Part shown: piece after piece, positions 5,522-14,091 of the stretch
How the letters are laid out: each line of letters opens with the position of its first letter
Position numbering within the stretch: the stretch's first letter is position 1
Origin: Ferruginibacter sp.
GTDB lineage: Bacteria; Bacteroidota; Bacteroidia; Chitinophagales; Chitinophagaceae
Reading direction: 5' to 3'
Assembly: GCA_017988335.1 (NCBI GenBank)
Contig: JAGNRZ010000001.1
Span: 2,920-66,919 of the forward strand
Length of the DNA: 64,000 bases
Translations under genes and position numbers: made by a program
The notes under the pieces: model-generated
Told to the model about the DNA's origin: nothing
Database searches by the model: none
What the model saw: only the letters and a program-made list of their open reading frames with translations

Positions 5522-5548
5522 AAAGCCGATGCAAAATGCATCGGCTTT
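5522..5548. terminator. Bidirectional rho-independent terminator between convergent genes
   Basis: Perfect 12-bp stem AAAGCCGATGCA / TGCATCGGCTTT with a 3-nt loop, and A/T runs on both sides. Confidence 0.8.
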
Positions 5549-5673
5549 ACTTATTTAATGTATGTTAATTTACTTTACTCAAAAAAATATTCCTTATTTT
5601 AATACTACATTAGGTATTATGTAATAATATATTTTTTACAGTTTTATCTTTGCATACTTCTACTATTATTAAT

Positions 5674-6342
5674 TTATTCTTTAGGCTTTCCTACAATTGA
5701 AACGTTTTCAAATGTCCCTTCTGTAATCATCAATTCTACTTTGCTGTCTCTTTTCATTGTGTACACTTTGTTATACATTTTTGCTTTAAACGTACCACTT
5801 GCCAAATAAGGGTTGCCAAATTCTGCAGTTGCATCTTTTTCTATTTTTGTGATTGTTAAGGTAAATTCTGTACCAGCATTTACAGCATTTGAGTTTGCAC
5901 TAAAATCGCTAGAGCCGCCAGCATTAGCTGTTTCATATCTTGTAAACGAAGCATTGTTTTCATTTGTAATAGTATAAGTAGCAGGCTCAAACTTAAAGTC
6001 TTTTATACCAAAATTTAACCACCCTCTATGTGGCCTACTTGAAACATCTCCCATTAAGCCAAGGTTTAAAAATTTTGTTACATGTGTATATGTGCCTAAT
6101 TGTGCATCGCCGTCATTGGCTGCACCTTTTTTTGTGTTGGCCAAAGTGTCATTTACTTTAAATGATACCACAGCTTTGTCATAAGGGTCGCTACTGGTGG
6201 ATGAAGATGTAGGTGTAGTTTGAGTTGTTGAACTGGTGGTAGCACTTGTAGTCACTTCTTTAGCTTTTTCTTCTTTATTGTTGCAAGATGAAATAAGCAA
6301 AGAGAATACTAACGATGTAACTAGTAGTTTTTTTGATGTCAT
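5674..6342 (-). CDS. Lipoprotein of unknown function (Thr/Ser-rich linker plus a beta-rich domain), last gene of the CDCL operon
   Basis: Lipobox LLISSCNN and a TTSATTSSTTQTTPTSSSTSS linker. C-terminal ...ITEGTFENVSIV resembles small Bacteroidota lipoprotein families (DUF6252-like; weak call). Lies 18 nt downstream of the preceding gene. Confidence 0.7.
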   Translation of the reverse strand: MTSKKLLVTSLVFSLLISSCNNKEEKAKEVTTSATTSSTTQTTPTSSSTSSDPYDKAVVSFKVNDTLANTKKGAANDGDAQLGTYTHVTKFLNLGLMGDVSSRPHRGWLNFGIKDFKFEPATYTITNENNASFTRYETANAGGSSDFSANSNAVNAGTEFTLTITKIEKDATAEFGNPYLASGTFKAKMYNKVYTMKRDSKVELMITEGTFENVSIVGKPKE

Positions 6343-6360
6343 TTTTTTATTTTTGATTGA

Positions 6361-10911: not shown

Positions 10912-10913
10912 TA

Positions 10914-13900
10914 TTACATATTTTGTGTTAACGATTGTAAAGGAATATTTAAAATTACTTTTGTGCCTATGCCATTATTAAAATCATCTTTTAAATCAAT
11001 TACTTCCATAGTAGCATTTATGTTCATTGTTTTATTTATAATAGCAATTCGGTTTTCGGTAATTTGCATTCCATAACTTTTCTTTTTTAATACTTGCTTA
11101 CTTTTTAGCAATGCTGCTTTTTCTCTACCCACTCCATTATCTTCTATTATTACCTTTAAAAAATTATTGCTTGTTAAAGAAAATTTTAGCAGCAGATGAC
11201 CCTTATCTTCTTTATGTAGTAACCCATGCCATATTGCATTTTCTACATAGGGTTGAATAAGCATAGAAGGTATAAACATTGTTTCTGCATTTATAATACC
11301 CTCTTCACTTATTGTATAAGTAAAGCTATTGTCAAACCGCAAACATTCCATTTCAATATACAGCCTCAACAAATCTAATTCGCTACTTAGCATTATTGTG
11401 TTTTGATTACTGTGGTCAAGAATTAATCTTATTAACCTAGAAAATTTAGTAAGATATTGTGACGCTTCGAAATGCTCATTTTTTAAAATATATTTTTGAA
11501 TACTGTTAAGAGAGTTAAAAATAAAATGAGGGTTCATTTGTGCCCTTAGGGCTTTCATTTCGGTTTCGGCCACCTGCTGTTTTAGCAGTGTTTGTTGCTT
11601 AATATTATTTATACGATAGCGATTCCAGGCATAAACAAGTCCAATTATTGATAATAGCATTGCAGCTATAAATAATGTTGTTTTATAAAAGGGCTTTTTA
11701 ATTTTTATTACTAACTCTTGTATTGGGCTTTCTGTACCATCATTATTTAAATACTTTACCTGAAATGTATATTTGCCTGGCTCTAAGCCGCTATATGCAA
11801 CAGAAGTTTTGTTGTTATTATACTGCCAGCTTTTATCTAAACCAATAAGCTGATAATAATATTTATTAGCATTGCTATTATTGAAACAAAGGCTGGCATA
11901 TTCAATTTCTAAATCATTTTCATATGGCTCAAGCGTTAAATAAACCACACCTGTATCTAGTTTTACTATCCTCTCTTTTTGATTTACTATACAGGATGCA
12001 ATAACTGGCTTTGGCGCATAATTATTCCACCTATAAGTATCTTTATCTATCGTATTTATTGATGAGTAATATATTTGAAACAGTTTATTACCAGCTTGCT
12101 CAAAGCTATATCCTCCGCCAGTTTCACTCATTCCGTTTTGTATATCAAATACGCCATATAGTTGTTTTGATGCTGGGTTAAATCTTGCTAAGCCTTCTAC
12201 TGTGCTTAACCAAAATATGTTATTCTTTGTATCTTTTTCTACATCCCAAATACCATCGCTTTTAAAGCTTTTATTATTAGCAGAGCTTATATGGTTTATA
12301 TCAAAATTTCCATTGTTATTTCTTATACATTCAAAAAAGCCATTTCCTTCTGTTAATATCCAAATATGATGATTTGCATCTTGCACAACATTTAAGCATT
12401 TGCCCATTGGGTCATTGCTCTCAATATTACTTTGCTTAATATGCTTATAACTTCCTTTAATTGCATCTAAAACATAAACTCCATCGTTACTTACAAACCA
12501 AATATTGTTTTTGTCATCAACATACACTGGAAGTATATGGTTGTCGGTAGATTCTTTATCAATATCTGCAAGATTATAGTGTGTAAGTTTATTACTATTA
12601 TACTCCCATTTATAAAAACCATTTTCTCTACTTCCCACATACATTACGCCTGCTACTCCTTCGGCAAAATATTTAGGGCTAAAAATGAATTTGCCGTTTT
12701 GGTCTTTAATGTCATTTGGTAATAATTTTTTATTTAGATAATCAAACTCATAAAATTTTACATAATCTGTGGCAAATATTTTTCCATCTTTACGATAAAA
12801 TAAAAACTTAATGCTATTGCTTGGTGTATGCCTGTTTGTAATACTACTAATAACTCCATTTCTATAAAGCAACAATCCATTTGCTGCAGTGGTAGTTATA
12901 AAATACTCTTCCTCTTTTGGGTTTTTATAAATCTTTATTATTTCTGTACCGCTATTTGTTATAGGGTCAAGTATTTTAGAAGTAGTTATTTGATCGTTTT
13001 GCCATGGTATCATAGCCAAACCAAAATGGCTACACACCCAAATATTGTGCTCTCTATCTTCCAAAAAAAAGCCAATCTTATTAATTTTGAAACCATTTTC
13101 TGTGGTTGATTTGCCGGGTACATCTGCCGTAACAGTATTTGTTTTTGTATTATATCTAAATAGCCCATAACCCCCAACTAGCAGCTCTCCATCTGTTTTA
13201 CGATATAATGAAAGAGCTATATTTTTTTGAAAGGTTTGGTTTTCATCAATTACTGGAGTGTAGGTTTGTGTACTTAAGTTAAATTTATATAAGCCACTTA
13301 TATGATTGCTGACTAGCAGACTATTTTCTTCTTTTAATAAAATACCATTACTCATTTCTTTATTAAAGAAAGGTGCAAATTTTATAAACTCACCTGCAAC
13401 TGTAAAACTGTATATTCCATTTTGGTGTAAAGCAAAAACTTTATTGTCATGTTCAAATATTCGTAACACACCTGTACTTGCTCCTTTGGGATACTTAGAT
13501 GCAAAAGAAGTAAAGCTACTATCAGCTGGGTTAAATCGGTAGAAATAATTTTTATCTGTAGCTAGCCAAGTATATTTACCGCAAAAACTAAAATGAATCC
13601 ATGAGTTCATCATAGTTTTATTTTCGGGTGTAAGTGGGGGTTGCCAAAAGCTAAGTGTAGATGGGTTCATCCATTGCAATGAAGATGTACCAGCCAACCA
13701 CAAATTACCAGTACTATCTTTATTTACCATTAACAAAAAACTGGATATTGTGTTAGAGGCTTTATTTATAGAGCTATTTATTTTTTTAAATTTACTACCA
13801 TCATACCTATACAGCCCACTTCCTGAGCCTACCCATATAAAGCCTAAGTTATCTTGTGCTACAGAATAAAAGTAGTTATCATTAAGCCCATCTTTTATAC

Positions 13901-13991
13901 CATAATTGATATAACAATACCCTGTACCTTGTGCCAAGGCTACCATTTTAATACATAAAAGTGTTGCTATTAATTTAATTCGAATATGCAT
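10914..13991 (-). CDS. Sensor histidine kinase: periplasmic two-component-regulator propeller repeats + Y_Y_Y domain, one TM helix, LytS-type His_kinase + HATPase
   Basis: Signal/TM, then repeated ...W[IV]G[ST]..GL..[FY] propeller blades. GKYTFQVKYLNNDG is Y_Y_Y-like. TM helix TTLFIAAMLLSIIGLVYAW. QMNPHFIFNSLNSIQ is the PF06580-type H-box. N-box YVENAIWHGL, then DNGVG. The stop lies 2 nt before the regulator ATG. Confidence 0.9.
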   Translation of the reverse strand: MHIRIKLIATLLCIKMVALAQGTGYCYINYGIKDGLNDNYFYSVAQDNLGFIWVGSGSGLYRYDGSKFKKINSSINKASNTISSFLLMVNKDSTGNLWLAGTSSLQWMNPSTLSFWQPPLTPENKTMMNSWIHFSFCGKYTWLATDKNYFYRFNPADSSFTSFASKYPKGASTGVLRIFEHDNKVFALHQNGIYSFTVAGEFIKFAPFFNKEMSNGILLKEENSLLVSNHISGLYKFNLSTQTYTPVIDENQTFQKNIALSLYRKTDGELLVGGYGLFRYNTKTNTVTADVPGKSTTENGFKINKIGFFLEDREHNIWVCSHFGLAMIPWQNDQITTSKILDPITNSGTEIIKIYKNPKEEEYFITTTAANGLLLYRNGVISSITNRHTPSNSIKFLFYRKDGKIFATDYVKFYEFDYLNKKLLPNDIKDQNGKFIFSPKYFAEGVAGVMYVGSRENGFYKWEYNSNKLTHYNLADIDKESTDNHILPVYVDDKNNIWFVSNDGVYVLDAIKGSYKHIKQSNIESNDPMGKCLNVVQDANHHIWILTEGNGFFECIRNNNGNFDINHISSANNKSFKSDGIWDVEKDTKNNIFWLSTVEGLARFNPASKQLYGVFDIQNGMSETGGGYSFEQAGNKLFQIYYSSINTIDKDTYRWNNYAPKPVIASCIVNQKERIVKLDTGVVYLTLEPYENDLEIEYASLCFNNSNANKYYYQLIGLDKSWQYNNNKTSVAYSGLEPGKYTFQVKYLNNDGTESPIQELVIKIKKPFYKTTLFIAAMLLSIIGLVYAWNRYRINNIKQQTLLKQQVAETEMKALRAQMNPHFIFNSLNSIQKYILKNEHFEASQYLTKFSRLIRLILDHSNQNTIMLSSELDLLRLYIEMECLRFDNSFTYTISEEGIINAETMFIPSMLIQPYVENAIWHGLLHKEDKGHLLLKFSLTSNNFLKVIIEDNGVGREKAALLKSKQVLKKKSYGMQITENRIAIINKTMNINATMEVIDLKDDFNNGIGTKVILNIPLQSLTQNM

Positions 13992-14091
13992 GTGTAAACT
14001 AAGCTACAAAATACAAAAGTTATGTATTTATTTGTGTTTAGATACTTACAATGCGTAATCTACATATTAAGTGAGTATTTAGTAAAAAAGG

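Follow-up and report, generated by a model that had tools for sequence, protein, structure and literature searches.

A three-gene operon encoding a CDC-like protein (CDCL), a C70 peptidase and a lipoprotein lies downstream of a putatively autoregulated two-component system in a Ferruginibacter MAG (freshwater/soil Bacteroidota), within the 64-kb window that is the whole stretch of DNA analysed here. A CDCL accompanied by its own cysteine peptidase and an adjoining small lipoprotein, under sensor control, is an arrangement undescribed for the CDC-type toxin family, and it gives the uncharacterised single-gene CDCL members testable partners in the cysteine peptidase and the small lipoprotein.

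The five genes, for the histidine kinase (HK), response regulator (RR), CDCL, C70 peptidase and lipoprotein, are all on the minus strand, in the order two-component system, CDCL, C70, lipoprotein (Table 1). An ORF check together with Pfam recovered all six elements listed in the first-pass annotation, with the same gaps: 2 nt between the HK and RR genes, 103 nt between RR and CDCL, 32 nt between CDCL and peptidase, and 18 nt between peptidase and lipoprotein, the last two leaving no room for separate promoters downstream of CDCL. The strong terminator said to close the unit stands only in part. The hairpin is real (13 pairs, six of them G-C), but it is common to the convergent gene and is followed on the minus strand only by TTT, making it a weaker intrinsic terminator than claimed; the short T run on the minus strand also explains why the terminator scan reported the plus strand alone.

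Table 1. Features of the locus, in positions of the window
Feature	Position	Strand	Basis or remark
Hairpin, G+C-rich, likely bidirectional terminator	5521-5549	.	between convergent lipoprotein gene and gene 5011-5502
Lipoprotein, 222 aa	5674-6342	-	lipobox LISSC, Cys20
Secreted papain-like (C70/C39-like) cysteine peptidase, 503 aa	6361-7872	-	Pfam Peptidase_C70
Secreted single-component CDC-like pore-forming protein (predicted), 714 aa	7905-10049	-	Pfam, profile search, Foldseek
CDCL, signal, SpI-type			residues 1-19
CDCL, DUF7452 x2	9495-9992		residues ~20-185
CDCL, Pro/Ser/Thr linker			residues 186-212
CDCL, CDC D1-D3 core	8385-9413		residues 213-555
CDCL, LecA-like lectin	7908-8384		residues 556-714
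LytTR operator, predicted	10110-10143	-	CTTCTAAATACTAA twice, 20-bp period
LytTR-family response regulator, 252 aa	10153-10911	-	Pfam Response_reg + LytTR
Sensor histidine kinase, 1025 aa	10914-13991	-	Pfam Reg_prop, Y_Y_Y, His_kinase
Putative autoregulatory LytTR box TACTAA-N14-TACTCA	14072-14097	-	upstream of kinase gene, pattern scan

Operator and two-component system

Exact copies of CTTCTAAATACTAA occupy 10110-10123 and 10130-10143, with the operator core TACTAA-N14-TACTAA spanning 10110-10135. The 60 nt between the end of the proximal copy and the CDCL ATG contain a promoter-like stretch, TTTG ... TATTATTT. A pattern scan with the box consensus TACTMA-N14-15-TACTMA gave 7 occurrences in 202 kb against 0.45 expected, and all seven are on the coding strand, in the interval from the RR gene to the first payload gene or immediately ahead of the HK gene. 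In the related locus L001 the corresponding site has an exact AATACTAA pair, again spaced by 20 bp; L074 and L079 have TACTMA pairs there, and L078 a one-mismatch variant. The pattern scan and the related loci bear out the direct-repeat operator of the first-pass annotation as a conserved, predicted LytTR box, far beyond chance once conservation in related loci is counted, with TACTMA half-sites two helical turns apart ahead of the operon and a second pair ahead of the kinase gene. In this second pair, the first half-site runs into the stop codon of the E1 dehydrogenase gene upstream. Its support is its conserved position, occupied also in L001 (4057-4083) and L074 (5918-5943), since a single match with two or fewer mismatches is expected 2.3 times per window.

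Pfam confirmed the identities of the propeller kinase and the LytTR regulator. The kinase has a periplasmic Reg_prop/Y_Y_Y propeller (~1-765), one TM helix (~768-790) and a LytS-type His_kinase domain, as delimited by Pfam and a hydropathy scan. NCBIfam matches of the regulator to BtsR/LytR-like models are below cut-off, and its orthologues in L074, L078, L001 and L004 are 86%, 70%, 67% and 56% identical respectively. A second Reg_prop/LytTR pair is located at 47766-51466 in the window, and such pairs are abundant in genomes of this kind.

The configuration resembles VirS/VirR of Clostridium perfringens, in which a LytTR-type regulator activates pfoA, the CDC gene for perfringolysin O, via two direct repeats just upstream of the promoter, and in which the VirR regulon also includes a cysteine protease gene (PMC2688746). 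A LytTR-type regulator, paired direct repeats ahead of a CDC-family gene and a cysteine protease are common to both, although here they are predicted from sequence and belong to another phylum. The boxes differ (VirR boxes measure 12 bp, whereas the TACTMA pairs have a 20-21 bp period), a large kinase with a periplasmic propeller/Y_Y_Y part serves as sensor, the Ferruginibacter toxin, unlike the pfoA product, lacks a cholesterol-binding domain, and the protease is of the C70 type and in the same operon.

The predicted toxin

Both the CDC-like core and the lectin proposed at first reading were upheld. Pfam places Thiol_cytolysin over residues 254-552 (78.9 bits, cut-off 25) and finds DUF7452 x2 (E 3.7e-34), DUF7452 being a modular tandem domain that is joined to differing modules across many phyla. 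In a PDB profile search the core matches suilysin (E 5.8e-19) and intermedilysin (~E 1e-18) over ~310 residues, and two-component CDCLs score lower (8g32, 8e-10; 6xd4, 8.6e-4); judged by these profiles, the core is nearer to the CDCs of Gram-positive bacteria than to the two-component CDCLs published from Bacteroidota. The residues Y397-Y398 ... Y441-G442-R443 (the FY-FY...YGR motif) are invariant in all five homologues, and each of the two membrane-hairpin segments shows an alternating hydrophobic/polar pattern. AlphaFold models the pore-forming core only at low confidence (pLDDT below 50).

The C-terminal 159 residues have no match among Pfam's own models; their structural model matches LecA/PllA-like lectins in Foldseek (1l7l, TM 0.77, E 1.5e-4), and PllA and PA-IL are on top in the PDB profile search (E 0.004-0.2). 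Cholesterol-binding domain 4 is absent, with a LecA/PA-IL-like lectin fold in its place. The fold is that of the galactophilic lectins LecA (PA-IL)/PllA, and the conserved segment FNDxxTxDG aligns with the Ca/galactose loop of PA-IL, although sequence similarity is marginal at the E-values above, and the CDCL domain has extra disulphide-type Cys and is a fused part of a toxin, not a free tetrameric lectin. In lectin-bearing CDCs such as lectinolysin, the pore-forming core is fused to a carbohydrate-binding module able to direct the toxin to glycans. Lectinolysin retains domain 4 and cholesterol dependence, with an N-terminal fucose-binding lectin added, whereas in the Ferruginibacter CDCL domain 4 is replaced outright by the LecA-like fold.

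With BfCDCL and EaCDCL, which consist of long and short subunits, the protein shares the Bacteroidota CDC superfamily, the FY-FY...YGR motif and a non-cholesterol binding domain. It differs in its SpI-type rather than SpII signal peptide, in the added DUF7452 x2 and LecA-like lectin, in a core that matches Gram-positive CDCs better (E 6e-19) than it does EaCDCL (8e-10, 9e-4), and in being a single CDCL gene, with no short-subunit gene anywhere in the 64-kb window.

The C70 peptidase as a possible activator or effector

The Asn-rich papain-like peptidase was likewise recognised correctly, with a Peptidase_C70 match of 51.4 bits (cut-off 19) and a weak one to C39_2. Its signal peptide is followed by an Asn/Gly/Ser-rich region at residues 20-330 (~310 residues, 35% Asn), which includes about six 25-aa repeats at nt 7026-7457, and by the C70 domain (residues 344-503, nt 6364-6843), in which the triad Cys350, His443 and Asp465 is intact when aligned with the L001 domain. 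Its identity is 96% with a fragment in L080 and 38% with the L001 peptidase's C-terminal C70 domain; the L001 orthologue also has an additional domain in which Asn stands in for the Cys and Lys for the His. AvrRpt2 (C70) and the C39 bacteriocin-processing peptidases have the same papain-like fold and Cys/His/Asp triad, but the Ferruginibacter enzyme is predicted to be Sec-secreted, carries the Asn-rich repeat region, and lacks both a type III signal and a fused ABC transporter. C70 is absent from the CDCL-free lipoprotein/DUF7452 loci L074, L075, L078 and L079 and from 65 other DUF7452 loci, and more distant CDCLs have no C70 beside them either; by these comparisons it appears specific to this CDCL subfamily, being found only beside CDCL.

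We favour, with slightly better than even confidence, an explanation in which the two-component system switches the toxin, the peptidase licenses it and the lipoprotein is the usual output of that system. An extracellular cue, probably a glycan in view of the sensor type, would activate the kinase, and the phosphorylated regulator would bind the repeats and switch on the operon. The toxin would be exported via its SpI signal peptide, and its lectin modules would bind a glycan receptor on the target cell, which may be a bacterial competitor, a protist or an alga. The co-expressed cysteine peptidase would cut the unconserved linker or an N-terminal activation segment, licensing homo-oligomerisation and beta-barrel insertion, and the lipoprotein at the producer's surface would block self-intoxication or dock DUF7452-bearing proteins.

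A role for the peptidase as CDCL activator is plausible because it is found only next to CDCL, and the first-pass statement that some Bacteroidota CDCLs need proteolytic activation is correct (PMC11169675). The activators reported there are C11 proteases of the target cell, however, rather than a co-encoded enzyme such as the C70 peptidase, which counts against the favoured explanation. The linker is variable, and the lack of a specific cleavage-site motif in it conserved across the five homologues also speaks against activation. A domain/signal scan gave neither a T9SS C-terminal domain nor a lipoprotein signal for CDCL or peptidase, so that outer-membrane passage is unaccounted for, a further point against this explanation.

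An effector role fits the data as well as an activator role. The C70 peptidase would be co-delivered and enter the target cell through the CDCL pore, with the disordered Asn-rich region as a translocation or tethering segment, much as streptolysin O translocates NADase in Streptococcus pyogenes. AvrRpt2, the founding C70 member, is an effector acting inside cells (Pfam description), and the only link of C70 to other systems in a literature search was a T6SS effector paper. The strict CDCL-C70 gene linkage, the intact triad, the extra L001 domain, which resembles a binding module more than an enzyme, and the linker without a conserved cleavage motif are all consistent with delivery. However, no immunity gene against a protease effector is evident, and all characterised Bacteroidota CDCLs need proteolytic activation. 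Cytolysin-mediated translocation is known from only one Gram-positive CDC, and we consider the effector reading unlikely.

The lipoprotein and the CDCL-C70 cassette

The lipobox is followed by a Ser/Thr-rich tether to ~residue 50 and a 10-strand all-beta globular domain, with AlphaFold pLDDT above 90 across most of residues 51-222; a Foldseek search of the model against PDB gave no match below E 0.06. The suggestion that this protein is a toxin-specific partner did not hold. Its family comprises 58 clusters versus 5 for this CDCL subfamily; it directly follows the same type of HK/RR pair, with neither CDCL nor C70, in the syntenic sister genome L074 and in L078; and it pairs with non-CDC DUF7452 proteins in L075 and L079. 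This wider distribution argues against a CDCL-specific role, dedication to CDCL being ruled out by the toxin-free loci and the other pairings, and we infer that the lipoprotein is the usual target of this kinase/regulator system.

It may be a putative immunity factor like BcdI, which is co-transcribed with CDCLs, sits on the cell surface as a lipoprotein and can block the pore (PMC11169675, PMC11952106), and so is a precedent. Toxin-free copies (L074, L078, Thermonema) would then be orphan immunity genes, the sensor inducing protection under attack, a reading we regard as possible but doubtful. The lipobox and tether, the presence of the lipoprotein in every full-length locus of this CDCL subfamily, and its retention in L074 under the same operator without the toxin, as orphan immunity predicts, agree with it. 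Unlike in the BcdI systems, however, the family is not confined to CDCL loci and also occurs beside DUF7452 proteins with non-pore-forming modules, such as an M19 dipeptidase; it has no detectable structural relative in PDB; and its sole annotated distant relative, Riean_0653 (NCBIfam Riean_0653_fam, a weak match at E 1.1e-5, below cut-off), is required for haemolysis rather than protective.

The lipoprotein could instead serve DUF7452-tagged secreted proteins as a surface dock or export helper, with the CDCL as one of several interchangeable cargoes under this two-component system family, a reading we put forward only tentatively. DUF7452 proteins are directly beside the lipoprotein in 5/9 lipoprotein loci, alternating arrays are seen (DUF7452 protein-lipoprotein-DUF7452-M19-lipoprotein paralogue), and disruption of Riean_0653 lowers haemolysis though the protein is no haemolysin; the modular nature of DUF7452 and the lack of a known outer-membrane route for CDCL and peptidase would also fit. 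Yet the lipoprotein is within 10 kb in 0/65 DUF7452 loci from other taxa, and three lipoprotein loci have no DUF7452 protein nearby.

The proposed co-occurrence of CDCL, C70, this lipoprotein family and a LytTR pair was found again in L001 and L004, and that of C70 and lipoprotein in L080. L001 has HK, RR, lipoprotein, a 301-aa gene, CDCL and C70, in that order; in L004 the HK/RR pair is divergent and is followed by lipoprotein, a 303-aa gene, CDCL and the N-terminal part of an Asn-rich protein; and L080 has C70 (96% identical) and then lipoprotein (87%), the gap again being 18 nt. A serine recombinase adjoins the lipoprotein in L080. No more than six lineages of this CDCL subfamily were recovered; in three, the contig ends within the peptidase gene, and for two of these three the gene is recognised by composition only. 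In all relatives with contigs of sufficient length CDCL and C70 are together, and despite differing gene order they lie close to this kinase/regulator pair and this lipoprotein family. In L074 the flanking proteins are 82-94% identical to those of the window, CDCL and C70 are missing, and the operator precedes the lipoprotein gene alone. Since the lipoprotein is not CDCL-specific, we read CDCL and C70 as a present/absent cassette lying between the operator and the usual lipoprotein target of the system.

It seems very improbable that an unrelated toxin-peptidase pair landed there incidentally and is not regulated by the two-component system. The missing cassette in the sister genome, the abundance of Reg_prop/LytTR pairs such as that at 47766-51466, and the recombinase in L080 would agree with such an event, but the same four gene families recur despite different orders and only 35-67% protein identity, the operator is directly ahead of CDCL, and the 32- and 18-nt gaps exclude separate promoters. 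Moreover, the kinase part of the window HK is 81-87% identical to that of L074, whereas its sensor part (25-41%) is no closer to this sister than to the far more distant, CDCL-bearing L001 (18-51%).

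Organisation of the locus

The toxin locus proposed in the first-pass annotation was recovered with all of its elements, as five ORFs with the corresponding Pfam domains that run on the minus strand from a propeller sensor histidine kinase (HK) through a LytTR response regulator (RR), a CDC-like protein (CDCL) and an Asn-rich cysteine peptidase (C70) to a lipoprotein, with gaps of exactly 2, 103, 32 and 18 nt. The database entry identical to the CDCL is named 'MAG: thiol-activated cytolysin family protein [Ferruginibacter sp.]'. The strong terminator claimed for the unit stands only in part: the hairpin is present, but only three T follow it on the operon strand, and since it also lies between convergent genes we take it as likely to be a terminator shared with the convergent gene rather than one of the textbook type. 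Three long plus-strand ORFs overlap the peptidase gene (6983-7630, 7020-7421 and 7363-7713; the longest 215 aa, with many Leu, Pro and Cys). They are antisense readings of its 75-bp tandem repeat, and almost certainly none is a gene.

Features of the locus; positions are those of the window, with other loci carrying the same feature in brackets
Feature	Position	Strand	Basis
HK	10914-13991	-	ORF; Pfam Reg_prop, Y_Y_Y, His_kinase
RR	10153-10911	-	ORF; Pfam Response_reg and LytTR
CDCL, 714 aa	7905-10049	-	ORF; Pfam DUF7452 (two) and Thiol_cytolysin
Peptidase, 503 aa	6361-7872	-	ORF; Pfam Peptidase_C70
Lipoprotein, 222 aa	5674-6342	-	ORF; lipobox LISSC, Cys20
TACTMA pair, RR gene to next gene	10110-10135 (also L001, L074, L079)	coding	pattern scan
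TACTMA pair, immediately upstream of HK gene	14072-14097 (also L001, L074)	coding	pattern scan
Hairpin, 13 bp, between convergent genes	5521-5549

A single-gene CDC-like protein with a LecA-like C-terminus

The CDCL belongs to the CDC/CDCL superfamily, with a Pfam match to Thiol_cytolysin (PF01289) of 78.9 bits against a cut-off of 25 over residues 254-552. Compared with the PDB, a profile of this core matches suilysin (E 5.8e-19) over about 310 residues, i.e. the whole D1-D3 region, and intermedilysin with E about 1e-18; scores are lower for the characterised CDCLs of Bacteroidota (8e-10 for the EaCDCL short subunit, 8g32, and 8.6e-4 for the long subunit, 6xd4). The F/Y-F/Y-Xn-YGR motif that defines the family (Evans et al. 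2020, PMC7527733) is present as Y397-Y398 and Y441-G442-R443 and is invariant in an alignment of five homologues. Residues 361-384 and 473-492, read from the sequence with guidance from the intermedilysin alignment, alternate between hydrophobic and polar on either side of a polar turn, the pattern predicted for the amphipathic segments of two transmembrane beta-hairpins; AlphaFold pLDDT is below 50 over both. A full-length AlphaFold model built from five sequences was unusable for the core.

Matches to solved CDCs stop at about residue 554-555, and we found no domain 4 with an undecapeptide and cholesterol-recognition motif in the protein. The remaining 159 residues are LecA-like in fold, and the CDCL is not a classical cholesterol-dependent cytolysin: it shares D1-D3 with the classical Gram-positive CDCs, but has a LecA-like fold where they have domain 4. 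The earlier label of lectin holds at the level of the fold, where Foldseek of the AlphaFold model of this domain (pLDDT only 55-75) matches the LecA beta-sandwich, with 1l7l, 4cp9 and 6ygq returned at E 1e-4 to 3e-4 and target TM 0.68-0.77, PllA-like lectins included (LecA 1l7l, E 1.5e-4, TM 0.77). In sequence the likeness is marginal; PllA and PA-IL rank first in profile comparison at E 0.004-0.2, and Pfam gives no match to the isolated domain even at E up to 10. The homologues have in common conserved Cys residues and an invariant FNDxxTxDG segment in this region, and alignment of the invariant N687, D688, T691, D693 and G694 with the PA-IL sugar loop is only suggestive of Ca2+-dependent galactoside binding. 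At the other end of the protein are two DUF7452 domains, modelled with a pLDDT of about 78. This modular domain, which occurs in tandem, is present in secreted proteins of many phyla, where it is fused to unrelated modules including M19 dipeptidase, and such a spread is typical of a binding module.

We found no second CDCL gene in the 64-kb window (tblastn with the core gives a single copy), and homologous loci, L001 and L004-L006 among those compared, also have only one. No SpII (lipoprotein) signal was found on the CDCL, whose N-terminus, MKKLLVGFLLFSISKLVAQNTF, contains no Cys. These two features place it outside the published two-component SpII-type class, in which the genes lie side by side in twos or threes and the products carry SpII signals. 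In NCBIfam neither the CDCL nor the peptidase matches any family, T9SS C-terminal sorting domains included. In L001-L003 a separate 59-aa ORF (L001 9858-10037) encodes the signal peptide and first residues of the CDCL and overlaps the called 675-aa gene, which suggests a frameshift or sequencing error at the 5' end of the orthologue.

Co-inheritance with the C70 peptidase, and the independent lipoprotein

The peptidase has a signal peptide followed by about 310 residues that are 35% Asn, including about six 25-aa repeats (a 75-bp unit present 5.8 times at 7026-7457), and then a C70 domain scoring 51.4 bits against a Pfam cut-off of 19, or 54 bits when isolated. The catalytic residues are present as Gln-x5-Cys350 (NSCW), His443 (FHAIV) and Asp465 (IDP), and are conserved with the C-terminal C70 domain of the L001 orthologue. 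The domain and the Cys/His/Asp are shared with AvrRpt2-like C70 enzymes, but the window protein carries a Sec signal peptide and not a type III signal. The L001 orthologue (12047-13846, 599 aa) has two C70-like domains with Asn-rich repeats between them; in its N-terminal copy the catalytic Cys is replaced by Asn and the His by Lys, and this copy is likely a pseudo-protease or binding module. The Asn-rich repeats were also considered as peptide-pheromone precursors for the kinase, an idea set aside because L074 and L078 have the same type of kinase and regulator and no peptidase.

Relatives of the CDCL are rare: a set of 5.8 billion proteins contains just four further full-length clusters, 45-51% identical. 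A genome scan seeded on DUF7452 motifs recovered DUF7452 proteins of many phyla and just one extra CDCL, which is truncated (L007); metagenome scans with C70 patterns and with CDCL core and lectin patterns gave no confirmed loci. An exhaustive C70 search returned 431 relatives, as sequences without genomic context, and a word-indexed protein search with the C70 domain returned nothing, the window peptidase itself included. Among the related loci, the CDCL, C70, lipoprotein and HK/RR genes recur together in varying order. The synteny idea of the first-pass annotation holds, and that the four families stay together despite these changes favours function over accident.

Gene order in loci with a CDCL or C70 gene
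Locus	Genes in order
Window	HK, RR, CDCL, C70, lipoprotein
L001	HK, RR, lipoprotein, 301 aa, CDCL, C70
L004	HK/RR (divergent), lipoprotein, 303 aa, CDCL, Asn-rich N-terminus matching window peptidase
L005	Kinase fragment, LytTR-only ORF, CDCL, truncated Asn/Gln/Ser-rich secreted gene (by composition only)
L006	CDCL, truncated Asn/Gln/Ser-rich secreted gene (by composition only)
L080	C70 C-terminus (96% identity), 18-nt gap as in window, lipoprotein (87%)

C70 was found neither in lipoprotein/DUF7452 loci without a CDCL, nor in 65 other DUF7452 loci, nor beside more distant CDCLs; CDCL and C70 are co-inherited. If the CDCL behaves like BfCDCL and EaCDCL, which are activated by proteolysis, the C70 enzyme would be what licenses it. 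The Pro/Ser/Thr linker that follows the two DUF7452 domains is conserved in neither sequence nor length among the five homologues, and their alignment contains no conserved site for an AvrRpt2-like cleavage motif in it. The main alternative gives the peptidase the part of a cargo or effector instead of an activator.

Several of these loci have peculiarities of their own. The proteins of about 300 aa between lipoprotein and CDCL (L001 8941-9846, L004 7135-8046) are secreted, 28% identical to each other and missing from the window. The LytTR-only ORF of L005 (639-953, 104 aa) lies after the kinase fragment and 4 nt upstream of the CDCL gene, and has no receiver; it is a degenerate regulator or else an artefact of assembly or of a frameshift. 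In L080 (1011-2989), which comes from a close relative, DNA similarity to the window ends at the lipoprotein stop codon; next come an ORF of 145 aa and the gene for a large serine recombinase, which hints at a mobile-element context.

The lipoprotein had been put forward as a partner of the toxin. It does lie near the CDCL in the window, L001 and L004, and its position 18 nt after the peptidase gene, together with the lipobox, is consistent with a lipoprotein co-transcribed with the CDCL, as for BcdI, the immunity lipoprotein of two-component Bacteroidota CDCLs. It is not dedicated to the CDCL, however, since it is present without one in L074, L075, L076, L078 and L079, unlike the CDCL-tied occurrence of the BcdI type, and its family of 58 clusters is about ten times the CDCL subfamily. 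The clearest case is L074, a syntenic sister genome (E1 dehydrogenase 89%, RR 86%, lipoprotein 76% and M19 peptidase 86% identical; two further neighbouring genes 92-94%), in which the RR gene and its operator-bearing spacer are followed directly by the lipoprotein, with CDCL and C70 absent. L078 has the same minimal unit, L075 and L079 have lipoprotein genes in alternation with genes for DUF7452 proteins bearing other modules, beside LytTR systems, and the isolate Thermonema lapsum has the lipoprotein alone. We conclude that the lipoprotein is independent of the CDCL and, from these CDCL-less loci, that it is the usual output of the two-component system, with CDCL and C70 as an accessory cassette behind the operator. 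The arrays in L075 (8283-15131) and L079 (8515-20666) contain DUF7452 proteins of 482-1253 aa, some fused to M19, with lipoprotein homologues and distant paralogues; in the window a stand-alone M19 dipeptidase gene (3639-4814), syntenic in L074, lies about 900 nt beyond the lipoprotein gene.

The lipoprotein would act at the surface, and immunity, docking or a helper function are the main alternatives for its role. In its AlphaFold model most of the globular domain has pLDDT above 90, and Foldseek found no PDB relative, only meaningless beta-barrel matches. The only annotation lead is a sub-threshold NCBIfam match to the Riean_0653 family, whose founding member is needed for Riemerella haemolysis and is itself not a haemolysin (PMC7881567).

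Predicted LytTR control and relation to known systems

The proposal of LytTR control holds at the level of domains and predicted sites. The RR has both a receiver (Response_reg, 67.3 bits) and a DNA-binding domain (LytTR, 63.9 bits), and the 103-nt gap between RR and CDCL genes contains CTTCTAAATACTAA twice with a 20-bp period. The pattern TACTMA-N14-15-TACTMA occurs seven times in the 202 kb of the window and ten related loci, against 0.45 on average and at most 2 in Markov shuffles, and all seven pairs are on the coding strand, regulator-proximal and of period 20-21 bp, close to two turns of the helix; L078 has a one-mismatch pair after the RR gene, ahead of the gene that follows. By phylogenetic footprinting these pairs are the predicted LytTR box, and the pair ahead of the HK gene suggests autoregulation. 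The closest described precedent for such a box ahead of the CDCL is VirR, which binds a pair of direct repeats ahead of pfoA, a CDC gene, and does the same ahead of a gene for a cysteine protease (PMC2688746).

The kinases of the window and L074 split at about residue 800, the sensor part being 25-41% identical and the kinase part 81-87%, and the periplasmic sensor is thus a second variable segment, apparently through exchange or rapid divergence. The stretches compared were window 11570-13991 and L074 5995-8494, in neighbourhoods otherwise 82-94% identical.

In the mechanism we propose, a signal would induce the operon through the two-component system, and the CDCL would be targeted to glycans by its LecA-like and DUF7452 modules and form homo-oligomeric pores, as in single-component CDCs. 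A wider reading, which we consider improbable, is that HK, RR and lipoprotein are the core of an inducible system of Chitinophagaceae-like Bacteroidota with swappable DUF7452-tagged effector cassettes behind a shared LytTR operator, the lipoprotein, as dock or decoy, recognising the tag, and the sensor being exchanged along with the cargo; as part of this same doubtful proposal, the cassettes would include the CDC pore-former together with C70, fusions to M19 peptidase, and others.

The locus is real, coherent and conserved, and varies the CDCL theme without being a new category of system. Within that theme it is marked by a single-component protein in which a lectin takes the place of domain 4, by a C70 partner of its own and by predicted LytTR control through a defined box; the literature on DUF7452, Bacteroidota C70, propeller-LytTR systems and CDC-LecA fusions yielded no account of such an arrangement. 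A single CDCL gene is encoded by 821 of 5947 Bacteroidota genomes (PMC11169675), and these single-gene CDCLs are the uncharacterised majority, only paired, lipoprotein-type CDCLs having been characterised so far. For one single-gene class the locus provides a set of partners, i.e. a defined regulator with its operator, a co-inherited protease that is a candidate activator or effector, and a candidate protective or docking lipoprotein, and the lectin modules predict a glycan receptor. LytTR control of a CDC-family toxin, known in clostridia, would recur here in a Gram-negative phylum, and two near-identical genomic backgrounds differing by presence or absence of the cassette are suited to ecological and genetic tests.

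A paralogous pair is present at 47766-51466, with a Reg_prop HK (981 aa) and a LytTR RR (252 aa) that shares 37% identity with the first RR. This pair is followed by its own direct repeat, CTATACAAT, present twice with a 21-bp period (51559-51567 and 51580-51588), from which we take the HK/RR-plus-repeat design to be general in this genome. On the 3' side of these repeats are genes for a 528-aa protein without a Pfam match and then a 1853-aa PKD-repeat protein, the whole region spanning 47766-58817.
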